Below, piece by piece: positions 9,746 to 30,096 of a stretch of 64,000 bases of DNA. The DNA is taken from contig JBBRPR010000004.1 in the NCBI GenBank assembly GCA_038227875.1, positions 64,001 to 128,000 on the forward strand. The letters run 5' to 3'. Source of the DNA: Planctomycetota bacterium. Its GTDB lineage: Bacteria > Planctomycetota > SZUA-567 > H5-PLA8. Position numbers and translations under genes: made by a program. How positions within the stretch are numbered: the first letter of the stretch is position 1; the number at the start of each line of letters is the position of its first letter. Below the pieces are notes generated by a model. It made no database searches, was not told the origin of the DNA, and worked only from the letters and a program-made list of their open reading frames with translations.

Positions 9746-12700
9746 ATGCCCGCCGCTCTGCTGCGTCCTTTTGTCGTGCTGTTCGTCCTCACCGCGCTTC
9801 CGCTTTGGGCTGCTGACTATTACGTTGACATCGCGATCGGCAGTAATGCGTTCGACGGTGTGAGCCCTACCGTCGGCGGGGGGCACGGCCCCAAGTTGAC
9901 CGTCAATGCCGCTATTGGCATCGCGACAGGCGGAGATACGATTCACATCGCCGCCGGCACGTATGTTGAACAAGTGTCGCTGACCACCAATCTCACTCTG
10001 CTGGGCGCCGGCAGCGGCAGCACGACCTTGAAACTGCCCGCCGCGCCGACGACCAATGTTCTGGGTACCGACTACGCCGTCGTCTTCGCCGGAGCCTCCG
10101 GCGCGAATGTGACGCTGCAATCGCTCACGATCCAGGGACCCGGCCCGAACGGCGGTCCGGCGCTCTACGGAATTTTCGCGGGTAACACGACCCACCTGAT
10201 CGTCACCGATTGCATCGTCCGTGACATCACCGACAACCCGTTCGGCGGCGTGCAGCACGGCAATGCCATTCAAGTCGGCCGCAACGCGCTGGCGCAAGCG
10301 GCCACGGCGACAATCACAAATGTGCAGGTCATCAATTATCAGAAGACCGGCATCATCGTCGACGGCCCGGGCAGTAACGCGTCCATCATCAATTGCCAGA
10401 TCACCGGCGTTGGTCCGACCGGCGCCATCGCTCAGAATGGAATTCAAATCAGCCGCACCGCCACGGCGACAATCAGTGGCACGACGGTGACGGGCAACTA
10501 CTACACCAACGGCGTCGCTTCGTGCGACGTTCTGCTTTTCCAGAACGGCGCAGTCTCCATCGATACCAGCACATTTACGGGCTCGAACGTCGCCGTGGAT
10601 GTCACCCAGAGTTCCGCCACCGGCACCGTCGGCCTGACCGGATGCACGCTCGGCACGTCGCTCAGCGGCAACGATGAAGGCTTGGCGACCGATCAAGCGG
10701 GCGCGGCAGTGACCGTTACCGGCTCCACCTTCACCAACAACAGCATCCAGAACATTGATATCACCGATACAGCCGGTAAGGGGATCACCTTCTCCGGCGG
10801 CAATACCATCACCGGCGGCGCGTCGGGTATTTCAGTCAGCGGCAGTCCCGTATTGAGTCTGGGCGATACGTCTTTCAACGGACAGTCCGGCAATGTGATT
10901 ACCTTGGCCGCTGGCGCGCTCGCCACTAAGACACTCGACGCCACCGGCATCAGCGTGAATGGCGCAGCAGTCTCCGGCCTCACCACTACTCAGCTTCTGG
11001 CGCTCGAAGACCGCATTTCTCACGGCGTCGATACACTCGGCGAAGGTCTCGTGCGCGTGAAGGCTGCGCAGCTTTTCGTCACGCAGGCCAGCGGCAGCAT
11101 TCAGCGCGCAATTGACCTCGCCAGCGCCGGCGATTCCGTCTTCGTCGGGCCGGGCACGTTCAACGAAAACGTCACCGTCAACAAACTCCTGACGCTCCAG
11201 GGCTCCGGCGCGGGCAGCGATCCAACCACCAACACCGTCGTCTCGAATGGCGGCAATGTCATCACCGTCACCGCTGGCGGCACAGACAGTACTCACCAGA
11301 CCACGCTGCGAGCGCTGTACATTACGGGCGGCGCGTACGGCGTCGTCGTCAACAGCACGCTCGGCTTTCTGACGCTGGATACGATCACCGCCACGAAGCT
11401 CGGCCAGTACGGCGTCTTCGTGGGGCCCAATGCCATTCTCAACGCCGTCACGCTGCTTAATTGTAATCTCTCGGCGAACAACACCAATCTGCAGGCCGAA
11501 CAGGCCGGCCTCTGGATCGACGGCGCCATCGACGGCCTGACGATCACCAACGGCCACTTCGACAGCAACACTTATGGTCTGTACACGCGCCAGTTGCCCG
11601 TACCAGCCAATCCGCTCCGCCCGCTAACCAACGTGCTGATCACCAACACCACGTTCAGCACCAATTTCTCCAAAGGCATCTACGCCGAAAAGCTCGATCA
11701 CGCCACGCTCACCAACATCGTCGTCGACGGCAGCGGCTACAGCAGACCGCAGTCGGCCGCACCCGATCCGCTGGCCTTCTTCGTGCCGCCGGCCGGAATC
11801 GACATCAACCTGAAGTACTCGACCTACACCTCTATCGTGCTGAACAACGCGACGGTGACCAACTGCGGCGCCAACAATCCCACGCAGGCCAGCGCGGTGG
11901 CGATCAAGGGCCGCGATGACCCCAGCAATTACAACACCAACCCCGCGCTGCTCAACGGCGTTCAGATCGTCGGCGGCACGTTCCAGACTCCGCCGTACGC
12001 TGCCCGTCCCGCGTTTTCGTTCGGAAACAACGCGACCAACATCGTCTTCTCCGGCGGCGTGAATGTCACCGGCACCGGCGTCGGCGTCAGCAGCTACATC
12101 AACAGCGGCGGCACGATCGACCTGGGCAACACCAGCCTCGCCAACACGCTGGCTCAGTATATTCAAAGCCTCACCACCGCCACGATCACCGCCAGCGGCG
12201 TGAACTTCAACGTCAGCGACGATTTCGCGATCGAAGACAAGATCCTCCACGCCGTCGACGCCCCGGGCCTGGGCGTCGTGCGCTGGAAGTCGGGGAACAT
12301 CTTCGTCACCGTCAATTCGTTCTCCGCGCCCACCACGACCACGCCCAGCCTGCAGCGCGCGGTCGATGCCGCGCTCAGCGGCGACACCGTCCACGTTCAG
12401 GCCGGCACCTACGGCGCGCAGAGCGTCACCTTCTCCGCCAAGGCCGTGACGTTGAGCGGCCCCAACGCCGGCGTGGATCCCAACGTCGGCTCGCGCGGCG
12501 CGGAAGCCATCGTCAACGGTGCGTCCCTCTTTACACTTTCCAATGGCAGCAGCGCGGCCGTGACCATCGATGGCCTCACCTTCGATCAAGTCACCGGCAG
12601 CACCGGCGTCATCACCGCCAGCGGTAGCGCCGACAGCGTGACCGTGCGCTGCAACCGCTTCCTCTCTCCGGCGCCCGCCGCGGTAAATCTCTCTGGCGCC

Positions 12701-14728
12701 ACGCGGTCGAACTGGACCATCACCCAGAATCGCATCACCACCGTTCAAGGCACGTCCGCCGGCGCGTTCTCCGCCAGCGGTCCGTCGGGCCTGCAGCTCT
12801 CCAACCTGAACGGCCTGACCTGCAGCTACAATTTCATCAGCGGCACGCCCAACAGCGGCATTCTGGCGGATGCTCTCGTCAGCAGCGCGATCACGGGAAA
12901 TCGCGTCCTCAACGTTCCGCAGGCCGGCATCCAGTTAAGCGGCACGTCCAACACCGTGAACGTCGCCTTCAACGAGATCAGCAACGCGAACATCAATCAG
13001 AGCACCGCCGACATGGGCGGCATCCGCCTGAACGCGCAGACGTTCACCGGAGCCGTCACCGTGCAGAACAACATCGTCGCCGGTTCGGTCAACGCCGTCG
13101 CCATCGCCGACGCGGGTAACAACGTCTCCAACGGTTTCACGACTGTCCGCAACAACAACCTCTCCGCCAATACGCGCGGCGTCTACCGCGCCGCCGGCGG
13201 CACTGGCACGCTGAACGCGCAATCCAATTGGTGGGGCAGCCCGCAGGGCCCTGTTGACCCGTCGAATCCCTCCGGCCAGGGCGTTGCCGTCAGCCCCGGC
13301 GTCACGTTCAGTCCGTTCCTGATCGACGGCACCGACACCGCGCCGCTGGATCCGACGACCTTCACCAGCCTCCAGAACAGCGTCGGCTTCCAGCCCAACA
13401 CCGGCCTCAGCGGCTCGGCGCAGCGCCTGGTCTTCACCACGCAGCCTGTTGGCAGCCTCGCCGGTTCGCCGTTGACCACCCAGCCGGTCGTGCAGGTGCA
13501 GGACGTCAACGGTAACGTCGCCACCAGCTTTACTGGGTTCATCGCCGTCTTCCTCGCCACAAATCCTTCGGGAGCCACGTTGACCGGCACGACGGTGCTC
13601 ACCGTTACCTCCGGCACCGCCACATTCACGAACTTGAATCTCGATCAGCCCGGCACCGGCTACCAGCTGCTGGCGATGTCCAGCGGCAATCTTGCCGCGT
13701 CGCTCAGCGCCACGTTTAACGTGCAAGCCGTCTTCAATCCCCTCCCGACCCTCACCAGCCTCTCGCCCAACAGCACCACCGCCGGCAGCCAGCCGCTGGC
13801 CCTGACCGTGACCGGCACGAACTTCATGTCCGCCTCAAAGGTACTCTTCGGAGGCCAGCCGCGCCCCACGATTTATTTGAGCTCCACGCAGCTGATCGCC
13901 GTGCTGCCCGACACCGACCTGGCCACCGCCGGCACGTTCACCATTGCTGTGAATTCCCCTGCACCCGGCGGCGGCACGACTGCGACGCTGGCATTCACTG
14001 TGAATCCTGTGACGGTACCCAACGCGCCGCCGCTGATGATCAGCCCCGCCAGCGCGACGCCCAATCCCGCCGCGCCCGGCCAGCTGGTGACGCTCAGCGC
14101 CGCCGCGGTTGATCCGGAAAATCAGTCGATGACCTACGCCTGGAATTTCGGCGACGGCGTCGCTGCCGGGGGTTCAACAGTCACCCACACCTTTACGGCG
14201 CCCGGCATCTACACCGTGAAAGTGATCGTCACCGATTCCGCCGGCGGCACGACCAATAGCCTCGTAACCGTAACGGTGGCTGCTGCTGCCACGGCGCCCA
14301 ACGAGACGATGACGCTGAAGTCCGCGAAGTTCAAGACCGTCACGCTCGCGCCGGCCAAAGGCACCGCGCAGGTCGCCGGCTCGTTCATCATGCCCACCGG
14401 AGTCACCACGCTTGCCGGCTCCGCGACGATCCTGATCAACGGCAAAACGCAGACATTCACCGTCGGAGCGACGGGCAAAGCCAAGGTCGGCAAGACGACA
14501 CTGACGATCAAGGGCAAACTGAAGAAAGGCGTGTTGAGCTCGTCGAGCGTCACGTTCGCGTTCAAGGATTTCGGCGACTACAGCACAGTGCTGATCAACG
14601 GAGGCCGCCCCGCGGGGACCTCCGGTGCGTCACTGATCGATGTCCAGCTGACCTACGCCGGCAAGACCTACGAAGGCACGCTCCAAGTCACCGTCACCGT
14701 GGGTAAAACGGGCAGCGCTGCGAAATAA
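9746..14728 (+). CDS. large secreted protein: repeated right-handed beta-helix modules, Ig/IPT-like and PKD domains, basic C-terminal domain
   Basis: signal peptide MPAALLRPFVVLFVLTALPLWA; repeated IQRAID.A..GD.V.V..GT; NWWGS; LTSLSP (IPT); WNFGDG (PKD); start re-picked within ORF 9668. Confidence 0.85.
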   Translation: MPAALLRPFVVLFVLTALPLWAADYYVDIAIGSNAFDGVSPTVGGGHGPKLTVNAAIGIATGGDTIHIAAGTYVEQVSLTTNLTLLGAGSGSTTLKLPAAPTTNVLGTDYAVVFAGASGANVTLQSLTIQGPGPNGGPALYGIFAGNTTHLIVTDCIVRDITDNPFGGVQHGNAIQVGRNALAQAATATITNVQVINYQKTGIIVDGPGSNASIINCQITGVGPTGAIAQNGIQISRTATATISGTTVTGNYYTNGVASCDVLLFQNGAVSIDTSTFTGSNVAVDVTQSSATGTVGLTGCTLGTSLSGNDEGLATDQAGAAVTVTGSTFTNNSIQNIDITDTAGKGITFSGGNTITGGASGISVSGSPVLSLGDTSFNGQSGNVITLAAGALATKTLDATGISVNGAAVSGLTTTQLLALEDRISHGVDTLGEGLVRVKAAQLFVTQASGSIQRAIDLASAGDSVFVGPGTFNENVTVNKLLTLQGSGAGSDPTTNTVVSNGGNVITVTAGGTDSTHQTTLRALYITGGAYGVVVNSTLGFLTLDTITATKLGQYGVFVGPNAILNAVTLLNCNLSANNTNLQAEQAGLWIDGAIDGLTITNGHFDSNTYGLYTRQLPVPANPLRPLTNVLITNTTFSTNFSKGIYAEKLDHATLTNIVVDGSGYSRPQSAAPDPLAFFVPPAGIDINLKYSTYTSIVLNNATVTNCGANNPTQASAVAIKGRDDPSNYNTNPALLNGVQIVGGTFQTPPYAARPAFSFGNNATNIVFSGGVNVTGTGVGVSSYINSGGTIDLGNTSLANTLAQYIQSLTTATITASGVNFNVSDDFAIEDKILHAVDAPGLGVVRWKSGNIFVTVNSFSAPTTTTPSLQRAVDAALSGDTVHVQAGTYGAQSVTFSAKAVTLSGPNAGVDPNVGSRGAEAIVNGASLFTLSNGSSAAVTIDGLTFDQVTGSTGVITASGSADSVTVRCNRFLSPAPAAVNLSGATRSNWTITQNRITTVQGTSAGAFSASGPSGLQLSNLNGLTCSYNFISGTPNSGILADALVSSAITGNRVLNVPQAGIQLSGTSNTVNVAFNEISNANINQSTADMGGIRLNAQTFTGAVTVQNNIVAGSVNAVAIADAGNNVSNGFTTVRNNNLSANTRGVYRAAGGTGTLNAQSNWWGSPQGPVDPSNPSGQGVAVSPGVTFSPFLIDGTDTAPLDPTTFTSLQNSVGFQPNTGLSGSAQRLVFTTQPVGSLAGSPLTTQPVVQVQDVNGNVATSFTGFIAVFLATNPSGATLTGTTVLTVTSGTATFTNLNLDQPGTGYQLLAMSSGNLAASLSATFNVQAVFNPLPTLTSLSPNSTTAGSQPLALTVTGTNFMSASKVLFGGQPRPTIYLSSTQLIAVLPDTDLATAGTFTIAVNSPAPGGGTTATLAFTVNPVTVPNAPPLMISPASATPNPAAPGQLVTLSAAAVDPENQSMTYAWNFGDGVAAGGSTVTHTFTAPGIYTVKVIVTDSAGGTTNSLVTVTVAAAATAPNETMTLKSAKFKTVTLAPAKGTAQVAGSFIMPTGVTTLAGSATILINGKTQTFTVGATGKAKVGKTTLTIKGKLKKGVLSSSSVTFAFKDFGDYSTVLINGGRPAGTSGASLIDVQLTYAGKTYEGTLQVTVTVGKTGSAAK

Positions 14729-14748
14729 AGACGACGACACACTGTGAA

Positions 14749-14764
14749 TGTTCCACGTGGAACG
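14749..14764. promoter_or_regulatory. parS centromere-like site
   Basis: TGTTCCACGTGGAACG matches the widespread parS palindrome GTT(T/C)CACGTG(A/G)AAC; inside a hairpin at 14731-14781. Confidence 0.8.
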
Positions 14765-14861
14765 TTCGCAGTGTGCGTCGTGGATTCGCAAAACCGTGAT
14801 GGAAAATTTTCCACCTCTCGAATGTGTACCGCTCCGAATGTCGTGGTCAGCACGCTGCTGC

Positions 14862-18629
<3,768 letters not shown>

Positions 18630-18827
18630 GAATGGGCCTCCGTGGAGCGATCTATGCGGATTGAACTGCGATCACCGTTCTGTTCCACACCGGTGCCGAA
18701 CCTCACGCTGAAAATAGTAAAAAGTTCCACACTCCTGTTGTGTAATCGTAAGTACTTGATAATTATGATATTTATGATTTTATTCTTAGAGGTGACGGCA
18801 TCGTGGCGGGGTGATTGGCTAATGAAA

Positions 18828-18853
18828 TCGCCGCGCCATTCCCTGGCGCGGCG
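18828..18853 (-). terminator. probable intrinsic terminator downstream of the FecR-like gene
   Basis: TCGCCGCGCCA-ttccc-TGGCGCGGCGA stem followed by TTTCATT on the minus strand. Confidence 0.65.
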
Positions 18854-18883
18854 AGCATAAAGAGTGTCGAAAAGAAGAATGCG

Positions 18884-19942
18884 TTAGCGGGAATTCTTGG
18901 CCTTGAAGACGGTCTTGGCAACGAGGTGACCATCGACTTCGGCGACCGTCAGGTAGACATTGTCGCCAGCCTTCAGTTCCGGAAGATCTTTGACGTCTTT
19001 GACGACGACATCGACTTCTTTGTCGTTGAGTCCCATCTTCTTGAACGCGATGGATAGCTTGAGCACGATCGAATCGGTGCCGGCTTTCACGACGGAACCG
19101 TTCATGGTGCCGCTGTAGCCTTTCAATTCCGTGGGCAAGGTGGCGGGCGTTGCGGCCACCGCAGGTGCGGCGTCTTTGTCGTCGCCGAACGCCTGGCTCT
19201 GCCCCATCGTCAAGACCGAGCGCGAACCGTTGAAATCCACGCTGACACTGCCGGCCAGCACGCTCACTGCCATGATCATTGCAGCACGCTTCATCGTCGT
19301 TTCTCCTTGAGTGTTTTGTCCTTTGGGTTGAAGTTCAACGGAGAACTGCGTGCCCAGGACAGTGATCAGACCGACTTCCGTACTCACACGAAATGCGTGT
19401 TCCGCATCTGGTGCCTTTTGAATCTGAAAGCTCGCCTTGCCTGATTTCAGTTCCACGCTGCGGGAATGCAGAATGCTGGAACTCGACGATGCCAGATCCA
19501 TCATCGAGCCGTCGGGAAAGCGGATCGTGGCCGCGTTGCCGGCGTCGCAGGCCACGACTGAACTGTCGCTGATCGAGCCATCCCGCTTCTCATTCACCAG
19601 CGCCGAGCCGGACACCAGCTCAAATCCGCCGTGCGGTTTCACGGCCATGTTCGCCAGATAGAAGTAGGTCGCGCCGGCGCAGAAAAGCAGCACCGCCGCC
19701 GCCGACCAGGCCAGATACCGCCGCGCCGGCAACGGCGTGACGCGGGGCGGAGCAGAGCGGGGGAGTTCCGGCGCCGCTGCGCTGACTTTCAGCGCTTCGA
19801 CCAGCGTCGCCGTGCCCACGAACTCGTCGTAGAGGCGTTCGCGGTTGGCCGGTTCGGCCAGCAGGCGTTCGAGTTCCTTCAACTCGTCGGCGGTGATGGA
19901 TTCGTCGCGCCAGGCCAGCAGCAGTTCGTCGAGGGATTTCAT
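18884..19942 (-). CDS. FecR-family anti-sigma factor with small beta-rich C-terminal domain
   Basis: N-terminal anti-sigma helices, TM, F.DGS, FRVST..G.ITVLGT.FSV; start MKSLDELL overlaps the sigma stop (ATGA). Confidence 0.88.
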   Translation of the reverse strand: MKSLDELLLAWRDESITADELKELERLLAEPANRERLYDEFVGTATLVEALKVSAAAPELPRSAPPRVTPLPARRYLAWSAAAVLLFCAGATYFYLANMAVKPHGGFELVSGSALVNEKRDGSISDSSVVACDAGNAATIRFPDGSMMDLASSSSSILHSRSVELKSGKASFQIQKAPDAEHAFRVSTEVGLITVLGTQFSVELQPKGQNTQGETTMKRAAMIMAVSVLAGSVSVDFNGSRSVLTMGQSQAFGDDKDAAPAVAATPATLPTELKGYSGTMNGSVVKAGTDSIVLKLSIAFKKMGLNDKEVDVVVKDVKDLPELKAGDNVYLTVAEVDGHLVAKTVFKAKNSR

Positions 19943-20472
19943 ACGGTTCGATTCTCCCCCTGGATCCGGCGGGCCACACACTCGCGCAGGCCTTTGCGCA
20001 CGCGGCTGAGCAGCATCAGCACGGCTCCGTACGTCTGGCCCGACTGGCCGGCGATGACCGTCAACTGCACGCCCCGCTCGTAAACTTCCACCAGAAGCTG
20101 GCGCGATTTTTCGGGAAGGGCGCGCACGCATTCCAGCAGCGCGTTGCGGCGCGCCGTCCAGACGTTGTGCGAACCGGCCTGTTCATCAAACGCCTGCTCA
20201 ACGAGATCCAGCATGGAACTGTCGGGGATCACGCGGCTGGAGCGTTTCTCGCGCCAGTAATGGAGCACGAGATTGCGCGCCGTACCGCGGCACCAGGCGG
20301 CGAGGTCCTCGATCGCCACGCCGGTGCGGGAAGCTTCGGATAGTCGCAGCCAGACTTCCTGGAGAATGTCTTCGGCGGCATCCGGATCGCGGATCAATCC
20401 GGAGATGAAGGCCATCAGCACGTGGCGTTGAGCCAGGAACTGTGCGCCGAGGTTTTCAAGCTTTTCGGTCAT
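19939..20472 (-). CDS. ECF sigma factor
   Basis: AEDILQEVWL, AWCRGTARN, LSRVRKGLRECV; coupled to the FecR-like gene. Confidence 0.92.
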   Translation of the reverse strand: MTEKLENLGAQFLAQRHVLMAFISGLIRDPDAAEDILQEVWLRLSEASRTGVAIEDLAAWCRGTARNLVLHYWREKRSSRVIPDSSMLDLVEQAFDEQAGSHNVWTARRNALLECVRALPEKSRQLLVEVYERGVQLTVIAGQSGQTYGAVLMLLSRVRKGLRECVARRIQGENRTV

Positions 20473-20759
20473 TCTCTCATGCTCTCCACCCGTTCTGTTC
20501 CGCGTGGGGAACGAACCTAACAGGAATTCTCAGAATTAATGTCCTCGGCGTGGCACTTGATGCCTTTTTGCACGGATTGAGGTGCACAGATTTTTATGGT
20601 CTTTCACACTACACCGTGGCTGGGTTGCGCCGGTTTAGTTCAATACCCGATGAAGCACACTCGAACAAGATTCCCCGTCCACCTTGCCCAATCGTTTCAT
20701 CTACTATTGAAATGACGTTTTGCGTATATTCTGCAGGCCAGCCACCTCGAAATTGAAGT

Positions 20760-21710
20760 GTGGCTCGGCCGGTCGAACATGTGGGTGACACAGGCGACAC
20801 ATTTATGGCAGGCACACGATTCAACGCTCCGCGCAATGCAATGCAGATGTACCGCTACACGCCGCATGACCGCGGCGCCTGGACGTTTCTGACCGACCGC
20901 GGCCCCGATTTCAAAATGAAAGCGCATTGTCACGAGGACCACGAGATCAACGTCTGTGTCCGCGGCGCGGGACGTTATGTGTTGGGAACCGGGGAGTCCT
21001 GCCCGCTGAGCGCCGGACAAATTCTCTATCTGCCCGGCGGTATCGCGCATGAATTGAAAGTCGATGAGCGCATCGTCATCCGCGGGATCTGCATCCATCC
21101 CAGCGAATTCGAATCCATTCCCAACGACGCGGTGGCGCGAGGCCTTGCAAACTCGCCGCAGATCAAGAGGTGGCGCGCGAAGCCGGCATTGCTCCCGGCC
21201 CGGCTCGCGATCGATGCGCTGCTTTATGCAACCTTGTTGGGACTTTACGAACAGCTGCGGACGGAGCAGACCGCCAAGGACGCCTTCTGCTCGCGGAGTA
21301 TCGCGCATCTTTCGCAGTTGGCGGCCATGCAGGTGCTCCGTATCTTCGCGAGACCGGAGCCGTCGGCGCAACCGGGGTTGGCCGAGCAGCGCGTGCTCAA
21401 CACGCGCGCGTGGATGGATCACAACTTCGCCACGGAGATCACGCTGGACCGGCTGGCGGAGCTCAGCGAACTGTCGCCCTCCCATTTCACATATCTGTTC
21501 AAGAAATGCGTGGGCCGTGCGCCCAAGCAATATGTCCTTGAACGGCGTCTGGAATATGCGGCTGGATTGCTCGCTCAGACGGGCATGCCGGTGCTGGAGG
21601 TTTCGCTGGAGTCGGGATTTTCGCATCTGGCTCACTTCAATCGCTGCTTCAAGCATTTCACCGGCGCGACGCCCACGGGATATCGTAAGAAACATCAAAG
21701 AAATCGTTGA
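20760..21710 (+). CDS. AraC-family transcriptional regulator (start uncertain)
   Basis: cupin HCHEDHE; C-terminal LSPSHF..LFK..G, SGFSHLAHFNRCFK..G.TP.GYR. Confidence 0.92.
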   Translation: MARPVEHVGDTGDTFMAGTRFNAPRNAMQMYRYTPHDRGAWTFLTDRGPDFKMKAHCHEDHEINVCVRGAGRYVLGTGESCPLSAGQILYLPGGIAHELKVDERIVIRGICIHPSEFESIPNDAVARGLANSPQIKRWRAKPALLPARLAIDALLYATLLGLYEQLRTEQTAKDAFCSRSIAHLSQLAAMQVLRIFARPEPSAQPGLAEQRVLNTRAWMDHNFATEITLDRLAELSELSPSHFTYLFKKCVGRAPKQYVLERRLEYAAGLLAQTGMPVLEVSLESGFSHLAHFNRCFKHFTGATPTGYRKKHQRNR

Positions 21711-21784
21711 ATCCCGTAGGCTTCAACCGGGCCTTTCTCGTTATGTTCTGCAGCGTGACCAGAACCCGCTGAGGAATCGCCCAA

Positions 21785-22699
21785 ATGAGCATCGAATTAA
21801 AAGACACCCACGGTGTCGCGCATGTGATCAGCAGTGAGCAGGAAGAATTCTTTCGCCAGCACGGTTACCTGCTGATTGAAAATGTGCTGAGCCGCGCCGA
21901 ACTGGAGGCGCTTGATGCCGGGGCCAATGCGCTGATCGCCAAAAGCGCGGAGCAGCCGCCGCCGGCGCATTTCAATTTCAGCAACGGGCATCGGTCTGGC
22001 AAGCCGGTGCTGCGGCGCATCGACTATCCCATCGACATGAGTGAACCGTTCCGCGCGCTGCTGGGCCACCCGTTTATTTTGCGCTCAGTGGAACGCCTGC
22101 AGGGGCGATCGTTCATTCCCACGTGGGATGCGATGGTGCTCAAGATGCCGTTTGAAGGCATCCAGGTGACGTGGCATCAGGACGCGTGCGTTCACTGCGC
22201 CGGCGACGAGCCCATTTTCAATGTCGATTTTTATCTCGACGACTCCGACCAGGATACCGCCGTGTGGGTGATTCCGGGAAGTCACCGCTGGACGCCAGAG
22301 CAATTGAAAGCTGTGCTTGCCAATCCCACGCAGTTCCCACAGGCCGGCGCATTTCCAGTTCCGGTCAAAGCTGGCAGCGTTTTATTCCATAACATCAAAC
22401 TGCTCCACGGCTCACCGGCCAGCACCGGGCCGAACATGCGTCGCGTGATCTATTACGAATTTCGTCCCGCCTCAGTGGAGTTCGAACGCGGACCGCACGT
22501 GCCCGAATACATTCCATTAAAGCAGCGCGTCTTGCGCGCCTGTCTCGAACGCCGGGCTGCGGCTGCGTACGTGCCAGAGGACGAAGTGCCGTTTGAGTAT
22601 CGTCCGGCAGTGCCATTCAACGGCGCGGATGGGATTCCAAGCGGTCCCATGGAGACATACAAATACGAGCACAAGGACTATCTCCGCAAGAAGAACTAA
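21785..22699 (+). CDS. phytanoyl-CoA dioxygenase (PhyH) family Fe(II)/2OG dioxygenase
   Basis: F...GYL, WHQD, IPGSH, AGSVLFH..LLHGS..N..RR. Confidence 0.9.
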   Translation: MSIELKDTHGVAHVISSEQEEFFRQHGYLLIENVLSRAELEALDAGANALIAKSAEQPPPAHFNFSNGHRSGKPVLRRIDYPIDMSEPFRALLGHPFILRSVERLQGRSFIPTWDAMVLKMPFEGIQVTWHQDACVHCAGDEPIFNVDFYLDDSDQDTAVWVIPGSHRWTPEQLKAVLANPTQFPQAGAFPVPVKAGSVLFHNIKLLHGSPASTGPNMRRVIYYEFRPASVEFERGPHVPEYIPLKQRVLRACLERRAAAAYVPEDEVPFEYRPAVPFNGADGIPSGPMETYKYEHKDYLRKKN

Positions 22700-22812
22700 T
22701 CGGCCCGGACCTATTCCTGCAGCCAGCGTCCGGTTCGTCCGCTGGGCGTGATTCTACTGGCGGTGGTGCTGCATAAACTGGGCGGATAACCCGCCTCGCC
22801 TTGATTTTCACT

Positions 22813-22828
22813 TTATCACTAATGATAA
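22813..22828. promoter_or_regulatory. candidate operator (possibly IclR)
   Basis: TTATCA-ctaa-TGATAA palindrome in the AT-rich region upstream of the beta-helix gene and IclR gene. Confidence 0.4.
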
Positions 22829-22922
22829 TTCAAAATATCGACTCCGTCAGCGTCGCTCCAGCGGGGTAGTCATCAGCACGGATGTAAAAGACGCGTGTTG
22901 CGCCCCCTGGTGAGGACTTCCT

Positions 22923-24734
22923 ATGCATCGGCAGAACAACTGGCTCGCGACGGTCTTGACGCTCATCGTTCCGTTACTTTCGGCGCGAGCTTCCGACGAC
23001 GGCAACGCTGTCGTCCCCGCCGAATTGCGCGCGACGCCCACGATTCTCTGCATCGGCCTGTATTGGCCGCTGCATGGCGATGCCAATGGCAACGCCAGCG
23101 CCAGCGTCGAATACCAGGAAGCCGGCACCGACGCGTGGAAACCCGCCTTGCCGCTCTTTCGCGTCTCTCCGCAGACCGTCGATGTTCAGGGCAACACCAT
23201 CGGCAAGATTCCCGTCTCGTTCCGCAACGGCATCAAAAACTGGGGCGGGATGAAAGAGTACGCGATCGAGCGGTACGCGCAGAATTACATCGCCGGTTCG
23301 ATCTTCAATCTCAAACCCGCGACGCATTATCTCGTGCGCGTCAAACTCACCGACCCCGACGGCGGCGGCACAACACAAACCGTGGAAACCACCACGCGAG
23401 CAGTGCCCGTGATCCCCACGCAAGGCAACGTGATCGCCGTCTCCGGCGGCGGCACGGCCCTCAACGATGCCGTCGCCAAGGCGCAGCCCGGCGACATCTT
23501 CAAAGTCAGCGCCGGCGTCTACGGCAACGTGATGGTCACCGCCAGCGGCACGGCCGAAAAGCCGATCGTGATCCAGTCCGCCGGCGACGGCGACGTCGTG
23601 ATCCAGTGCCCATCGCCGGTGCAGAATTTTGAAGACGGCTCGGGCAACGGCATCGAACTGACCGGGTCGTATGTCCACATGCACGGACTGACCATCAAGG
23701 AATTCCGCGTCGGCATCCGCATGCGCACCAAAACGGCAACCGGCCTCAGCGTCACGCGCTGTACGTTCGTGAAGAATTGGACGGCGATCGAATACGGCGG
23801 AAGCAACGGTTACTTCGCCGACAATTCCATCTCCGGCATCAAAGGCCCTGGCGAAGCCGGCGGCGACGTCACCGAAGGCCACGCCTTCGACAACAATCCC
23901 GATCGCACCGGCGGCGGAAACGTGATCTGCTACAACACGATCACGCGCGTCTCCGACGCCCTGCGCCTGCACTGTTCTGACGCCGACGCCTACGGCAACG
24001 ACGTCCTCTTCGGCTCCGACGACGCCGTAGAATTCGACGACGGCGGCGCCAACGCGCGGCTCTGGGGCAATCGCTTCACGCACCCCGGCAACAACGGCAT
24101 CAGTTTTCAGCCCTACATCGGCGGTCCGGCCTACGTCATCCGCAACCTGGTTTTTGTCGGCACCGAGGACGTGATCAAGGACCGCTACAAATCCTGCGGC
24201 GCGATCTTGATCAACAACACGTTCGTGGAGGCCGGCCCGAAAAACGCCGAATCCGTCACGCCGCCGGAACACACTTTCGCCCGCAACAATCTCTTCATCG
24301 GTTACGGCCGCACCTCCATGAAATACCACGCCGAAGATTTCCTCCGCACCCCCGCGACGCTGGATCTGGATTTTAACGGCTACAACAAACCCCTCGGAGC
24401 CCCCGGGTGGAAGGCCTTCAATCTTCCCAAGCACGAAATCCGCCCGCTGGCCGAAATCCGCGACGCCACCGGCCTGGAAGCGCACGGCGTACAGCTCGAT
24501 CCCGCCGCGTGTTTCAAACAGCCCCTGCCCACGCGGGAGGAAATCGATCAGGCGCTGAAAACCTGGACCGGCGCGCACCCCGACCTGAGCCTCAAGGCCG
24601 ACTCCCCCGCCATCGACAAAGGCGTCAGCCTGCCCAACGTCGCCGACGTCTTCGAAGGCGCCGCGCCGGACCTGGGCGCGCTGGAATTCGGCGCGCCCCT
24701 GCCGCAGTGGGGCGTTCGTCCCGAAGGAAAATAA
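22923..24734 (+). CDS. secreted right-handed beta-helix protein with N-terminal FN3-like domain (polysaccharide lyase-like)
   Basis: signal peptide; GSIFNLKPATHY; AQPGD...GVY..SGTAEKPI; SPAIDKG..APDLGALE. Confidence 0.8.
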   Translation: MHRQNNWLATVLTLIVPLLSARASDDGNAVVPAELRATPTILCIGLYWPLHGDANGNASASVEYQEAGTDAWKPALPLFRVSPQTVDVQGNTIGKIPVSFRNGIKNWGGMKEYAIERYAQNYIAGSIFNLKPATHYLVRVKLTDPDGGGTTQTVETTTRAVPVIPTQGNVIAVSGGGTALNDAVAKAQPGDIFKVSAGVYGNVMVTASGTAEKPIVIQSAGDGDVVIQCPSPVQNFEDGSGNGIELTGSYVHMHGLTIKEFRVGIRMRTKTATGLSVTRCTFVKNWTAIEYGGSNGYFADNSISGIKGPGEAGGDVTEGHAFDNNPDRTGGGNVICYNTITRVSDALRLHCSDADAYGNDVLFGSDDAVEFDDGGANARLWGNRFTHPGNNGISFQPYIGGPAYVIRNLVFVGTEDVIKDRYKSCGAILINNTFVEAGPKNAESVTPPEHTFARNNLFIGYGRTSMKYHAEDFLRTPATLDLDFNGYNKPLGAPGWKAFNLPKHEIRPLAEIRDATGLEAHGVQLDPAACFKQPLPTREEIDQALKTWTGAHPDLSLKADSPAIDKGVSLPNVADVFEGAAPDLGALEFGAPLPQWGVRPEGK

Positions 24735-24748
24735 GGTTTGACCACTGC

Positions 24749-25546
24749 ATGAAAAACGACGCCCGCGCCGCAACCTCTCCCACTCCCGCGCTCGACCGCG
24801 GGATTGCAATTCTGGAGATGCTGACCGGGCCGCTGCGCGACGGCGCCACGCGCCACGACATTCAAAAGCGCCTGGCCATCCCGCAAGCCTCCACTTACCG
24901 CTTGTTAAAAACGCTGACCGACGCGCGCCTGATCAGTGAAGACCCGTCGACGGGAAAATTCCGCCTCGGCGCGCGCAGCATGCGCCTGGGTTTCTGGGCG
25001 CGCCACGTCTCGCCGGTGGTGAAAGCCGTGCAACCCCTCCTGCGCGAGTTGTCGCTGCTCACGCACCAGATGAGCACCCTGATCGTCCACGATCACCGCT
25101 GGAAATTAATGGTGCTCGAAACCTGGCAGACAGAAGGCACGCCGCTGCGCGTGCCCGTTCGTCCCGGCATGTTTTTCGGGCTCGACCAGTCCACCGCGCC
25201 GGGCCTCTGCTACCTGACGTTTGAACCGTCGCTCCGCGCCGAAAAATTCCTCCACCAGATCGCGATCCCCGAACGCCGCGAGCTGATGGACCTGCAGGTC
25301 GAGCCGCCGGACAAAAGTATTCTCGACGTCTGCCAGAATTTCCGCCGACTGGGCTATGCCGTGCAGTCGGTAAATCCAGTAAACTCCGGCCTGGCCGTAC
25401 CGGTCTACGATCGGCGCGCCAAAGGCGTGCGCGTGGCCGCCGCGCTGAGCATCGTCTGCGACGCCAAATTCCTCACCCCCCGCCACGTGGAAAAGTGGAG
25501 CTCCGCCGCGCGCCGCCTGGCAAAAGAATTGGAAGCCGCCATCTGA
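24749..25546 (+). CDS. IclR-family transcriptional regulator
   Basis: PALDRGIAILE..IPQASTYRLLKTL HTH; TAPG, GYA, LAVPV, AALSI; start re-picked within ORF 24407. Confidence 0.88.
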   Translation: MKNDARAATSPTPALDRGIAILEMLTGPLRDGATRHDIQKRLAIPQASTYRLLKTLTDARLISEDPSTGKFRLGARSMRLGFWARHVSPVVKAVQPLLRELSLLTHQMSTLIVHDHRWKLMVLETWQTEGTPLRVPVRPGMFFGLDQSTAPGLCYLTFEPSLRAEKFLHQIAIPERRELMDLQVEPPDKSILDVCQNFRRLGYAVQSVNPVNSGLAVPVYDRRAKGVRVAAALSIVCDAKFLTPRHVEKWSSAARRLAKELEAAI

Positions 25547-25556
25547 CCCTGCCCAT

Positions 25557-25588
25557 CCCTCTCCCCCTGAGGAAGAGTTACTCATAGG
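25557..25588 (+). repeat. left inverted repeat bounding the low-GC island
   Basis: 26/32 identical to the reverse complement of 28873-28904. Confidence 0.7.
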
Positions 25589-25760
25589 TAGAGCGGAAAA
25601 TATTTAGACACTTATAGTGATCCAGCGAATTCGGAATGCTGTGATAGATTTTTCCGCTTCGGATTTTCCGTTTTTCATAGGAGGTCGGAACGGAGTATCC
25701 AATAGCGGGATTGAACTTCAGTGTCGAGTTGGTTCCCGAAATAGTTCCTGGAGGAAAGCC

Positions 25761-26264
25761 ATGATTAGTAAACCAGGCATTTTTAATTTATTGGATAAAT
25801 TGAAGATGATTCTACAAAAAAATAATGTTACGCATGGCGATTCTTTCAGTATCTGTCCTCGCCCTAATTTGAAAACAGGATGGCGAATACCCGCCATTGA
25901 AAAAGGGGTTTACCTTGAACCGTCGCCAATGTTAAAATGTCGATTTGAATATGCTGGAACTTGGGTTAATGCCGAGCCCGGCAAGTCCTGGCTTGACCTA
26001 GTGGAACTTGAATCGGTATGGGATAATACGCGCGTACTTAGGCAATTGGAAATTCGAGAGAAGCATTTTGAAAACTCCATACTTTCAATGGTTCCTAAAA
26101 CTCATCTTTCGATTTTGGGATTAGATATGGACGGGAGGGAGGAGTCTTACCTACATTGGAAGTCGGACGCCATTGAACCACGTATAATTCAGTACTATGG
26201 CGGTAATGAGAACATATTCGACAACTTTTACCAATTTCTTGTCTGGCTCACGACTGAAAAGTAG
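25761..26264 (+). CDS. low-GC hypothetical protein, possibly SMI1/KNR4(SUKH)-like immunity protein
   Basis: GGAGG RBS; AT-rich codons; C-terminal YLHW..EPRIIQY..FDNFYQFL.W resembles the SUKH tail. Confidence 0.55.
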   Translation: MISKPGIFNLLDKLKMILQKNNVTHGDSFSICPRPNLKTGWRIPAIEKGVYLEPSPMLKCRFEYAGTWVNAEPGKSWLDLVELESVWDNTRVLRQLEIREKHFENSILSMVPKTHLSILGLDMDGREESYLHWKSDAIEPRIIQYYGGNENIFDNFYQFLVWLTTEK

Positions 26265-26310
26265 ATCTATTCGATTACGCGCCAACTGAAACCCGAAATC
26301 CGCGCGATCC

Positions 26311-27021
26311 AGGGCCGAAGGCCCGCCGCTATACCAGCCCAGGGCAACGCCCTGGGAAAAATCCCCCCCATCGCCACAAGGGCTGAAAGCCCGAACTATC
26401 AACCCTCTCGAGCGCGCCGCCCCGCCGTCGCTGAAGAAGCGCCCGCCTCAGAGACCTCACGTCGCATGCGTTCCGCCGCCTCGCCCCGCCTCACAACCTC
26501 GAAGAGGTTGCGTCTACAAAGCCCAGGGTTGCGCCGCGAGGCGCTACCCTGGGTTCACGATCATGAATCGAAACCAACCCTGAAAGGGTTGCGGCTTCAA
26601 ACTGAAGCGCGCCGGGAATAGCGCCACGTCGTCCCAACCGCCGCCGCACGTTCGCCGCACGCGGCCCGCCGAGTCTCACGCGCGCACCGCCCCGAGTTCC
26701 GAACCCGGAGGGTTCACAACCATTAGCCGGCGGTTGAGCGCAGCGACACCGCCGGACCCGCGCCCCCCAATTGCTCCACATCCCGGAGGGATGCCAGACG
26801 AGCCGCACGTCCCACGCCAGAACTCCCTGCCCCCAGCGCGCCGCCCCACCGTCGCTGAAGAAGCGCCCGCCTCAGAGACCTCACGTCGCATGCGTTCCGC
26901 CGCCACGCACCGCCTCACAACCTCGAAGAGGTTGCGCTACAAAGCCCAGGGTTGCGCCGCGAGGCGCTACCCTGGGTTCGCGATCATGAATCGAAACCAA
27001 CCCTGAAAGGGTTGCGGCTTC
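26311..27021. repeat. array of REP-like multi-hairpin elements including an ~187-bp direct duplication
   Basis: hairpins CCCAGGGC-aac-GCCCTGGG, CCCAGGGTTGCGCC-gcga-GGCGCTACCCTGGG (x2), CCGGCGGT..ACCGCCGG; 26411-26598 is repeated at 26835-27021. Confidence 0.9.
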
Positions 27022-27159
27022 GAACTAGCGACTAAGCGCAAGTTCCATCGTTGCTATATCGTCCAAAGAAGCCTTCGTAGGGCTCAGGTCCCTCGAGAAA
27101 ATTCACAATCAAGCTGTTGTGTTGCGGCGTGGCGCAAGTATTGGCGAAATTGTTTAGCC

Positions 27160-28500
27160 TTACCGGTCTCGCCTTAGGCTCCGGGTCGCTAACTGTTGTA
27201 CTCTACTGTCTCCATGCGAGGTCAGCTGCTGAACTAAAGGCAAAAACTCTGGATGCCAATTCCCCGCTTGTGCTATGTTACTCAATACTAGGAGACTCTC
27301 AGGATTCTTAACCTTTCCATAATATTCGAGAATTCGCTTGAAGATTTCGACTCGATGACGTGCCAATCGATCATAAATTGCCGGCTCCAGAACTATGTTT
27401 TGGTATACAACTAAAAATTGGTCGTTGACTCGGAAAGCAGATTTCAAAACAGAGTCGAGGCGCTCGGGATCTGTGCAGATATTTGAAAAAATCCAAAGAG
27501 CAGTGCTGCTTGTGTTTGGGTCTTTCTCCATCGCAATTTTCTCTAAATCGTCAATACGTCTTTGAAGTTCAATCCTGTGCGTACTGCAAAAGTTATTCTC
27601 CATGATTATTTCAAGAGCTGAACGCCTGACGGGCGTGTCGTGATCATTGAATGCGACTGCAATAATACGCGCGGCATACTTGTCAGGGTCTAACTTTCCC
27701 AGAGCTTTCACTGCTCCTACTCGGAGTTCTAATTTCTCAGAGGTAAGAGCAGATTCCAATAGGCTGTAGCAATTTTCGGCAATTTGCGTTTCTCCCAATG
27801 AGTATAAGACCGCCATTTTAACTTCCATTGATGCTTCATTGAAAGCTCCTTGAAGATCAGCACAAATGTCAGGACCGACATCATGAAAGGCCTGCAGCGA
27901 GTATGCGGCAAGTTCTTGATCCTTTAAGGACTTTGAACAAAGTTGCCCTCTTAGAAGTGCAAGTTCATTCGATCCGTCACTAAGAGCGTCGGGTAGAAAG
28001 CGACACTGCGGGATTGGATTCCCCCAAGCATCATCTTCGCCATCTGTTATGTCTAGAAAGCGCTCAACAGGCTGAAAGGGGATATTGAGTTTAGACATTG
28101 TTGTCAAGACGTCGCTCAAAGCATCCCGAAAGGTCTTCTCGTTTCCCTGCGCGTAAAGGTTAGTGCGTGCAAAGTTAGCGATTGACCTAATGGAATTGTA
28201 CAATTTGTCTGCTTCATTCTTTCTTAGAGAACTGATTCCTGTCGAGCCGTTTTGCCACTGCATAATTTGTGAAGGGGATTCGGGCAGCCTAGACAACATC
28301 AAATCTTCCCATTTGCTGAGATCCCGAAAACTCGTGAAGGACCACAGGATAGTTATTGCATGGTCAATTTTTGGAGACACTTGCAATGTCGAGTGTGCAT
28401 ATGCGTCAAGGCATGAAACGAGGTACGCCACGCGCGTTCGTTGTAAAACACCGCAAAGATTTTCATACAATTCTTCAAAATTTAAACTCTGTTGGTCCAT
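27160..28500 (-). CDS. low-GC HEAT-repeat protein
   Basis: EVKMAVLYSLG, LRVGAVKALGKL, VRRSALE, DSRVQQLATRSL repeats; AT-rich. Confidence 0.8.
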   Translation of the reverse strand: MDQQSLNFEELYENLCGVLQRTRVAYLVSCLDAYAHSTLQVSPKIDHAITILWSFTSFRDLSKWEDLMLSRLPESPSQIMQWQNGSTGISSLRKNEADKLYNSIRSIANFARTNLYAQGNEKTFRDALSDVLTTMSKLNIPFQPVERFLDITDGEDDAWGNPIPQCRFLPDALSDGSNELALLRGQLCSKSLKDQELAAYSLQAFHDVGPDICADLQGAFNEASMEVKMAVLYSLGETQIAENCYSLLESALTSEKLELRVGAVKALGKLDPDKYAARIIAVAFNDHDTPVRRSALEIIMENNFCSTHRIELQRRIDDLEKIAMEKDPNTSSTALWIFSNICTDPERLDSVLKSAFRVNDQFLVVYQNIVLEPAIYDRLARHRVEIFKRILEYYGKVKNPESLLVLSNIAQAGNWHPEFLPLVQQLTSHGDSRVQQLATRSLRRDR

Positions 28501-28872
28501 TTAGTATCCGCCGCGAGGCCAAGTCTTGGTTTTTCCTGTCGCCGCAATTTGTTCGCCAACTTTCTGCGGTAGGGGCTCTAATCTTTAGGCTACTTGATGA
28601 GGTAGTTATAGTACCTGCGATTAAGGAAACTCTTGAGAAGAAAGTACGGGCTGAAGGTAAACACGTTTCAAATGTGGTCGCTGAGGCGCTATTGAAATAG
28701 GGCTTTAAGGTTTTAAACCTGAATGTGGGTTAAATGATTTTCTTACCTAAAGGTTTGTCCCTCTAGGCTTGTGCTTATGCGGGATTTTCACTAGAAGTAA
28801 TGGCTCATAGTTGCAGAGCACTTTTGAGTATCCCGATAGAGTATTCCAGAAGTGTTTAAGTTTTCCTCTTTC

Positions 28873-28904
28873 CCCCTGAGTGACTATCCCTCATGGGGAG
28901 AGGG
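28873..28904 (-). repeat. right inverted repeat bounding the low-GC island
   Basis: see 25557-25588; itself palindromic (CCCCTGAG..CTCATGGGG). Confidence 0.7.
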
Positions 28905-28925
28905 GACGCGCGCATAGATCGGCCT

Positions 28926-28983
28926 AACCCAGGGTAGCGCTGCGGCGCAACCCTGGGCTTTGTCGCCATTAGCCCGTTGGGCT
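28926..28983 (-). repeat. inverted copy of the REP-like element found at 26516 and 26939
   Basis: AACCCAGGGTAGCGCTGCGGCGCAACCCTGGGCTTTGT is nearly the reverse complement of the array element. Confidence 0.85.
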
Positions 28984-29045
28984 AAGCGAACGGCGAGCGC
29001 ATCAACCGGTCCTTTCCGGCCGCCCGTCCGCTCCGCGGAAATGAA

Positions 29046-29081
29046 AAATGACCGATGACCAATGCCCACTGACCAATGACT
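29046..29081 (+). repeat. heptamer tandem repeat (AATGACC-like, about 5 degenerate copies)
   Basis: aaatgacc gatgacc aatgccc actgacc aatgact. Confidence 0.65.
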
Positions 29082-29598
29082 CCGTTAAATGGGCGCGATC
29101 CCGTCGCGAATGGGCGTGAACGCACCGGGATGAGACCGCGCGTCTTTTTGCAGATGGACACCGCGTCTTCGTCTTTCACGAGAATGATGTTGCAGCCGTG
29201 GGAATACTCACGGGAAGTCCTTCGGTCTCACGACGGAGCATTTCGGCGTACGGAGCCAGGCCAGGCCGGATTTGAACATGTGCGAGTCGGGCAGTTTGCA
29301 AACGCCGCGTTCGCAAGTCCGCGTTTCCGGACAAAAATGCTTCTCACCCTGCACCGTTTGCCGGAGGCCGAATCGAGTCGCGCGGCGGACGCAAGCGGCG
29401 CCCGCGACTCCGGATTTGGCATGACGTTCGCCATTACTCCTCTCGTCCTGACTGGGGGGCGCAGACATGAGTCGAATCTCCAATTCATTTCTTACCGCGA
29501 CGGAAAGCCGCAAGACGCGCCGCGTTGAGATCCTGCCCGACGTGGCCGACGTCACACCCACGCCGTCGTCGTTGTGGCGCGCGGTGGATGAGTCGTCG

Positions 29599-30096
29599 AT
29601 GAGCCCCGCCAATATTACGTTGCTGTTTATCGCCGGGGATTCGATGCACACCAAATTGGTGCGCATGGTTCTGAACTCCGCCGGATTTGTCACGCGGGAG
29701 ACGGCCGGAACGCTTGACGTCGCTGGAGCCGCAGTGCCGTCGCTGGTGCTGCTGGATTGGGACGCCGAAGGCGTCGATGGCCACGCCATTCTCAACGCAC
29801 TCCGCACGGATCCCCAACTGCGCCAGGTTCCGGTGATCGTGCTGACCAACCGCAGCGTCTCGCAGGGCTGGTGTTGTGAACTGGCGAAGTATTTCGTGAG
29901 TTGGGTGCTGGAAAAACCGATCGTCGTGCTCAGCCTGCCGCAGCTGATCCAGCGCACGATCGCCGCGCGGGGCCACGCGCTCCAAGGCTGCCAGATCGAA
30001 CGCTCCGCCTTGCTCGTCGAGAACGGCCTGACCGCCTCCGGAGCGCTCTACAAATCCGTGATCCTCCCGTGTCTGGCGAGCGAGAGAAGTGAGTAG
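29599..30096 (+). CDS. single-domain atypical response regulator receiver (start may be 29467)
   Basis: PSLVLLDWD..VDG..L..LR.DP.L..VPVIVLT..KP. Confidence 0.75.
   Translation: MSPANITLLFIAGDSMHTKLVRMVLNSAGFVTRETAGTLDVAGAAVPSLVLLDWDAEGVDGHAILNALRTDPQLRQVPVIVLTNRSVSQGWCCELAKYFVSWVLEKPIVVLSLPQLIQRTIAARGHALQGCQIERSALLVENGLTASGALYKSVILPCLASERSE

Follow-up and report, generated by a model that had tools for sequence, protein, structure and literature searches.

A conserved nested start in a planctomycete FecR-domain anti-sigma gene and a segment that probably serves as both beta-strand and export signal

Can a single anti-sigma gene encode both a membrane-tethered sensor and an exported copy of its outer domain? 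The question is raised by a locus in a 64,000-nucleotide stretch of DNA (the window) from a Planctomycetota bacterium, in which a FecR-domain gene carries an internal Shine-Dalgarno (SD) sequence and an in-frame start codon. As in the FecR/FoxR/PupR regulators (PF04773; 6OVK, 4M0H/4M0N), the gene lies behind an ECF sigma factor and encodes a protein with a single anchor, a FecR beta-domain and a Gly-Thr dipeptide. In those regulators, a C-terminal piece separate from the anchor is part of the mechanism, according to the accessible parts of the sources (PMC12036975; PMC9249621).

The regulatory unit lies on the minus strand. It begins with a 177-aa ECF sigma factor (19939..20472; Pfam Sigma70_r2/r4_2) that scores above the cut-off of TIGR02937 and is nearest to TIGR02989, for which its 115.5 bits fall just below the cut-off of 124.55. 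The sigma stop codon overlaps the start of the anti-sigma gene (ATGA), which encodes a 352-aa protein (18884..19942; P0001) made up of a helical N-domain, one transmembrane helix, the FecR beta-domain, a linker and an OB fold. An intrinsic terminator-like hairpin with an 11-pair stem and a T-rich tail (18828..18854, minus strand) closes the unit; the search behind it found four such sites versus 2.1 expected in shuffles. Upstream of the sigma gene stands the motif AGGTTC-N11-GGAACAG (20495..20518, minus strand), a candidate (auto)regulatory promoter or operator. A second copy (18680..18703, minus strand) precedes the gene of a PKD-domain secreted protein (18629-14862) and may be a target promoter. 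These are the only exact occurrences in the 9.3-Mb genome, and the motif is kept before the orthologous sigma gene in the related genome G010. Judged from its sequence, it is a candidate promoter of this ECF group or, since GTTC...GAAC is an inverted repeat, a dimeric operator. The motif also stands before the sigma gene of L017 and behind the anti-sigma gene of L046.

The PKD-domain protein is likely a target of the ECF sigma factor, and its gene was not found adjoining the G010 ortholog. It is a 1255-aa protein of secreted type (14862-18629, minus strand) with a HELGH zinc-peptidase-like motif, PKD and Ig domains and a long Gly-Thr repeat linker. No TonB-dependent transducer was found among the neighbours scanned (seven proteins in positions 10000-30000 of the window, with PKD, AraC, PhyH and beta-helix proteins). 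The genome, which is 88% complete, holds DUF1559-type (PF07596) matches and gave no match to FtsZ; together with a sigma factor nearest to TIGR02989, these traits agree with a planctomycete origin. An internal promoter in the anti-sigma gene is not supported: 5-mer enrichment against synonymous recoding yielded no aligned motif. It returned T-rich words at a Phe codon some 50 nt ahead of the anchor (TTT in 18/40 versus 8/35, P=0.054). The AGGTTC-N11-GGAACAG motif is likewise absent inside the gene.

The long product is a FecR-domain protein, not a FecR ortholog. Residues 131-233 match Pfam FecR (PF04773) with 48.8 bits against a cut-off of 24, and the AlphaFold model (83 sequences, mean pLDDT 86.6) finds 4M0H (E 3.7e-8) and 6OVK (E 3.7e-5) in Foldseek, giving it a fold like those of BDI_1681 and PupR. 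The NCBIfam FecR equivalog NF007296 reaches 26 bits against a cut-off of 385, and PF04773 is the only Pfam match at E up to 0.1, with none to the FecR N-terminal domain or to FecR_C (STN-like). The membrane anchor (about residues 77-98; 19649..19714, minus strand) is helix 77-99 in the model and is preceded by R74-R75, a possible Tat motif. Further along, the sequence contains Gly197-Thr198 (19349..19354, minus strand), the putative autocleavage dipeptide of the FecR/FoxR type. In the model, loop 207-221 is followed by strands 222-230, 233-237, 240-244 and 249-253, the first two of which have a pLDDT of about 94.

The outer OB-fold domain (about residues 268-350; 18893..19141, minus strand) is modelled with pLDDT above 90 and is common to the long and nested products. 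It has no Pfam match and no usable ESM Atlas match. Its best structural neighbours in Foldseek are CusF and the C-terminal OB domain of SilB, together with other OB folds, at weak scores (E 4e-4 to 3e-3) and with 12-20% identity for CusF and SilB; the periplasmic OB fold of the CusF/SilB type is known both free and fused. The metal ligands of CusF are His, Trp and Met-x-Met. In a five-sequence alignment the OB domain described here lacks Trp as well as any conserved His or Met pair, which gives no indication of metal binding. Close homologs P0007 (L046, 389-1033) and P0012 lack the whole FecR domain and pass from the anti-sigma N-domain and membrane helix directly into the same OB domain.

Within the anti-sigma gene the minus strand reads ACTC AAGGAG AAACGACG ATG AAG CGT GCT GCA. 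The AAGGAG (19303..19308, minus strand; duplex -8.5 kcal/mol) spans the codons Gln-Gly-Glu, with Gly as GGA, and an 8-nt spacer separates it from the ATG at 19294-19292, which is codon 217 of the 352-aa gene. The in-frame ORF that begins there (18884..19294, minus strand; P0002) encodes 136 aa and 14.2 kDa. The first-pass annotation had described just this arrangement, an SD 8 nt before an in-frame ATG at 19294 giving a 136-aa product, and it can be read directly from the minus strand. Its placement of the ribosome-binding site in a loop after VLGT agrees with both model and sequence, in which the SD and Met lie within loop 207-221, past G197-T198.

SD initiation is in use in this genome, with GGAG found 5-10 nt before first ATGs. 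When SD strength is taken as duplex energy, with a threshold of -7 kcal/mol and plus-strand ORFs of the same genome as background, 20.8% of 1,261 first ATGs pass, versus 1.0% of 12,133 deep ATGs. An SD combined with a signal-like start is found at 10 of 23,092 deep ATGs. The 16S 3' end was not found in the assembly, so the anti-SD assumed for these energies is the standard sequence. Compared with synonymous recodings of the single gene, the mRNA fold is weak (P=0.006) and the SD is not significant (P=0.07). The weight of evidence comes from relatives.

Four homologs with 52-62% identity keep G-G/E-x-x-M at the same place (Val in one), and the G010 ortholog reads AAAGGAGG, then 6 nt and ATG. 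A wider sample was drawn with a profile that matched 135 of 401 genomes of the phylum and from which 150 of 326 matches were listed; it was built from 15 FecR domains, 11 of which later scored as site-bearing, and the sample is therefore biased to site-bearing genes. Thirty loci, 80 regions and earlier loci gave 146 distinct domain hits. Removal of 14 unanchored hits (mostly short-loop or truncated) and three mis-anchored ones (L002, L123, L152) left 129, of which 106 fall below 60% identity. An SD with ATG or GTG in the loop is present in 49 of these 106 non-redundant relatives (41 ATG, 8 GTG), a share that does not equal prevalence because the sample is profile-biased. Site calling produced one false positive (L118) and left four likely sites (L043, L077, L121, L156) below threshold. 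In the organism's own genome, one of 13 FecR matches has the site. In canonical FecRs the F-to-G segment is 15 residues long and holds no site: none was found in the 17 anchored loci among 29 Pfam-ranked loci of near-complete genomes (12 unanchored).

Selection at the DNA level can be seen when the group is defined from protein alone, by a Met that precedes the conserved Gly by 9-22 residues, as it does in 48 of 106. An SD of -7 kcal/mol or stronger precedes this Met in 41 of the 48, versus 26.2 expected when the residues are recoded synonymously according to the codon usage of each gene; among the remaining internal Mets of these genes, 15 of 296 have one. The Gly codons before the Met are GGA in 36 of 47, against a background of 14% (binomial P 7e-22, a value inflated by kinship), and Val after GGAG is GTG in five of six (background 39%). 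The distance from GGAG to the start stays within 5-9 nt in 43 of 49, in line with the 5-10 nt peak at first ATGs of this genome, even though loops vary in length between 20 and 38 residues. Relative to recoded sequence, mRNA folding across the 60 nt that surround the start is weaker in 43 of 48 (mean -11.4 versus -16.9), and at the same place in site-less long loops it is weaker in 18 of 43. All of these counts treat sequences that share kinship and are non-independent. The proposed check of SD and Met conservation thus came out in favour of the nested start, as SD and start codon are kept in very divergent homologs with selection at synonymous sites. At the level of sequence, the nested SD and start are confirmed as real, conserved and under DNA-level selection.

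Sites are present at 62 loci in 42 genomes and 22 families (71 genomes and 31 families were sampled), scattered across a poorly resolved tree. In a quick tree with 68 of 103 branches open, 26 changes are needed versus a shuffled mean of 35, and at least four are forced; given this poor resolution, no claim is made of a single origin or of the order in which events took place. Two Poribacteria loci from a scan of genome contigs were rejected as not being FecR genes, and none of 41 Poribacteria genomes matched FecR. A metagenome scan gave one locus, without a FecR domain, and a plasmid search gave eight weak FecR matches. Three stand-alone versions of the nested gene were also rejected: P0010 and P0015 do start at the nested Met, yet their contigs are of 524 and 965 nt, and P0151 clusters with a 505-aa member.

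The nested product starts with M-K-R and 16 uncharged residues (19238..19294, minus strand), which in the long protein are FecR strands 222-230 and 233-237. Its 11-residue Kyte-Doolittle (KD) maximum of 2.45 equals that of the N-terminus encoded by the window's secreted-type gene at 22923; signal-like calls are made here by heuristics of charge, uncharged run and hydropathy. The same character goes with the site among relatives. Residues 2-7 carry a net positive charge in 43 of 49 site-bearing genes, the uncharged run has a median of 16 with the site versus 3 without, and the 11-residue KD maximum is 2.57 versus 1.06. When genes are matched in disjoint nearest pairs, hydrophobicity is higher in the site-bearing member in 47 of 47. 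The position of the usual FecR Glu is charged or polar in 4 of 49 genes with the site versus 37 of 57 without; as the first-pass annotation had noticed, it is Ala here (Ala230). An independent protein set has a charged residue before the Gly in 2 of 84 Met-bearing members versus 26 of 64 others (three unanchored). The invariant Val and Gly positions are retained, and the variable ones between them go from polar to hydrophobic with the site, leaving a Val-rich stretch inherited from beta-strands. Basic residues come before this stretch and acidic ones after it; Lys or Arg is found within it in some site-bearing genes (Lys at -4 in 7 of 49). The segment is thus predicted to be structural in the long protein, and in the short one it has the anatomy of a signal peptide, which supports the earlier claim that the last FecR strands double as a signal peptide. 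On the model, the same segment probably forms FecR strands in the long protein and an export signal in the short one.

The candidate signal-peptidase site is A-F-G at the end of the FecR domain (19184..19192, minus strand), with S-V-S and S-R-S as alternatives nearer the hydrophobic stretch. Small residues at -3/-1 are found at the domain end in 69 of 84 Met-bearing versus 29 of 58 other homologs. A-F-G lies 18 residues beyond the hydrophobic stretch, which is unusually far for a signal-peptidase site. Support for the cleavage originally proposed at AFG|DD is modest, with the enrichment of small residues favouring it and the 18-residue distance counting against it. In a WG subgroup, A-W-G-type sites stand right behind the hydrophobic stretch, and the -3 test there is not significant (9/11 versus 2/6, P=0.11). 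No lipobox is available to the nested product of this gene, as it has no Cys. At four other loci (L080, L081, L082, L101) the nested N-termini end in a lipobox-like V-x-A-C, and from their sequence these products could be lipoproteins; Cys is also present at the same strand position in site-less genes.

What the nested products would carry varies widely. Of 52 products searched against Pfam, 17 gave a match at E 0.001, several of them scoring under the curated thresholds. Clear cases are CarboxypepD_reg, FG-GAP, VIT-VWA, EF-hand, DUF3108, DUF3160 and DUF3352, kinds of cargo typical of exported proteins. Such variety suggests that the FecR domain acts as a cassette before different outer domains. 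None of the 49 site-bearing genes has fewer than 60 residues after the Gly, versus 5 of 57 without the site. Nine site-less long-loop homologs (P0030, P0042, P0054, P0071, P0099, P0106, P0133, P0136, P0144) have no cargo domain and end in short acidic, Asn/Gln-rich tails with DDG-x-QNN repeats. The notion of a free copy of the sensory domain must be amended at the present locus: it is the outer domain that would be copied, and the free product would be the OB-fold domain rather than the FecR domain.

Candidate nested starts are also found in ECF sigma genes with membrane extensions. A scan of the organism's own genome (G000) for nested SDs with signal-like starts gave 11 hits in 2,325 ORFs versus 3.9 expected. 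Five ORFs checked from the nested-start scans are ECF sigmas with extensions, and nine of the 64 extended ECF sigma genes of this genome have such a start versus 1.6 expected under independence. Four of them are at C67:31342-34386 (minus strand, L157), C69:3180-4967 (plus strand, L158), C4:236384-237673 (minus strand, L159) and C8:1287-3485 (minus strand, L160); the further ORFs are on C9, C47, C17 and C8 (plus strand), with a doubtful one on C27. Five of the nine starts, which are ATG or GTG, lie just before a membrane helix and three behind it, and the five inflate the signal-like criterion. A Met before the helix may be conserved in planctomycete ECF extensions. The nested cargo of the C67 gene has a paralog in the same genome (L197, contig C24) and four relatives (L193-L196) in frames of 579-610 codons, and these cargo-sized frames fit a fusion to a secreted-protein gene. 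We lean slightly towards the view that in planctomycete-type ECF signalling the membrane-tethered regulators, both FecR-domain anti-sigmas and sigma factors with membrane extensions, generally use a nested start to produce their outer domain a second time in free, exported form, with the dual-use signal of FecR genes repeatedly gained and lost.

For the locus itself, the best reading, held with moderate confidence, is that one gene yields a sensor tethered to the membrane and, separately, the sensor's outer domain as an exported copy. The sigma/anti-sigma transcript would then give three proteins: the ECF sigma factor, the full-length anti-sigma protein and the 136-aa nested product. The full-length protein would be anchored by its N-terminal helix, with residues 222-256 as the last FecR strands and the OB domain outside, and self-cleavage at G197-T198 is probable by analogy with FecR/FoxR. 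If the long protein folded before export, its hydrophobic strands would be concealed; its use of Tat is uncertain. The nested product lacks the N-terminal strands and cannot form the FecR fold, so its basic-hydrophobic N-terminus would be exposed as a Sec-type signal and would export the OB domain, after which signal-peptidase cleavage would leave a free periplasmic copy. Initiation at ATG 19294 appears very likely; export by the product's own signal, should it be initiated, is probable, and cleavage to a free form, should it be exported, is somewhat favoured. Calculated masses are 37.3 kDa for the full-length protein, 16.3 for the Gly-Thr fragment, 14.2 for the nested product and 10.4-11.5 for its processed form. 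If the AGGTTC-N11-GGAACAG motif is the sigma factor's promoter, the unit is autoregulated and activation would also raise the free OB copy. This copy would most likely compete with the tethered domain for a ligand or partner and so damp or buffer signalling, and a decoy or feedback role is proposed tentatively.

One alternative keeps the nested start and departs from this reading at cleavage. The N-terminus would target the membrane and remain uncleaved, producing an anchored OB domain without the anti-sigma part that could be a tethered decoy or co-receptor. This would suit the lack of a convincing peptidase site near the hydrophobic stretch, and the FecR-less homologs P0007/L046 and P0012 indicate that a membrane-anchored OB domain is viable. 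Conversely, small -3/-1 residues stand before an acidic start at the domain end (69/84 versus 29/58), a subgroup has A-W-G-type sites directly behind the stretch, and 16 residues is short for a stable membrane anchor; an uncleaved product is thus unlikely. An improbable alternative is that the nested product complements the autocleaved N-fragment in trans, leaves the cytoplasm with the anti-sigma protein via Tat and re-caps the sensor. Its precedent is E. coli FecR, in which, as the accessible part of the source describes it, cleavage is cytoplasmic and the C-fragment undergoes co-export through Tat and prevents further cleavage (PMC12036975). The nested start lies 19 residues past Gly-Thr, which makes the product nearly equal to the 155-aa C-fragment, all 49 site-bearing genes retain Gly-Thr (as do 47 of 57 other relatives), and RR precedes the transmembrane helix in 29 of 46 site-bearing genes. 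However, RR is equally common without the site (36 of 57; 65 of 103 relatives overall) and no clean RR is seen in the four closest homologs, the nested product lacks strand 199-206 of the C-fragment in the model, and the hydrophobic strands and basic residues, present only with the site, would be left unexplained.

It is more improbable again that no second protein is made, the G-E/G-G..M loop being a protein motif or ribosome pause and the hydrophobic strands an interface or second membrane segment. SD-like sequences do arise by chance in loops rich in Gly, Glu and Lys, as the 26.2 of 48 expected from recoding illustrates. The GGA bias, fixed nucleotide spacing, ATG/GTG interchange and under-folding are nevertheless features of DNA or RNA tied to the start codon, and basic residues before the stretch with acidic ones after it give the wrong orientation for a return membrane pass. 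Least credible is that the site was left behind when a truncated anti-sigma gene recently fused to a downstream secreted-protein gene, or that it is an assembly artefact, without selection for two products. A fusion fits the C67 ECF gene, whose cargo has a paralog and relatives of about 580-610 codons that lack the sigma part. In the FecR genes, conversely, the sequence behind the start can be aligned to strands of canonical FecRs and is modelled as part of the domain, the same arrangement is found with different cargo in 42 genomes and 22 families, and no stop interrupts the gene in any of the matches listed. Conservation largely refutes the relic explanation.

The preferred reading, a tethered sensor and an exported outer-domain copy from one gene, resembles several known systems in part. 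In FecR/FoxR/PupR the second piece arises by autocleavage, whereas here a 15-residue loop insertion holds an SD and a start codon; the strands are signal-like and the C-terminal domain is an OB fold in place of FecR_C/STN. The RSV G glycoprotein likewise exists as a tethered and as a soluble form encoded in one frame, the soluble form coming from a second AUG. It differs in belonging to a eukaryotic virus and in having a signal that derives from its anchor rather than from the strands of an outer, folded domain. Bacterial N-terminal proteoforms (CheA L/S, SpaO, SsaQ, ClpB, SseL, PagC/OmpX) share the plan of one gene and two products with a common stop. Within the accessible portions of two sources, in-frame internal-start proteoforms sometimes differ in location, and the known short forms lose a targeting signal, whereas the short form here would gain one from buried strands (PMC13515050; PMC11005335); the words FecR and anti-sigma do not occur in the main texts of either. 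Two-polypeptide phage endolysins also have a conserved internal SD and start that give a copy of the C-terminal domain, which may partner the full-length protein; there the start belongs to the gene of a lysis enzyme, and the available part of the source describes neither an export signal in the nested product nor a role in signalling (PMC9430671). The available part of the ECF reclassification mentions no such nested start (PMC7826278), and a literature search confined to abstracts and main texts found no description of a nested start in a FecR gene. A conserved nested start with a dual-use, signal-like segment in a FecR gene is apparently undescribed.

FecR-type regulators are a textbook signalling family, and autocleavage is regarded as the sole source of their second fragment. 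With a conserved nested start, the sigma/anti-sigma unit would have a third product, a soluble copy of the sensor domain that could tune signalling. It would also be a rare natural case of a short proteoform that gains an export signal, from residues that also fold as beta-strands. If the design extends to ECF regulators in general, the FecR domain would be a cassette that gives any cargo a matched pair of sensor and secreted effector or decoy. Since gene callers miss nested products, many secreted proteins of the phylum may be unannotated.
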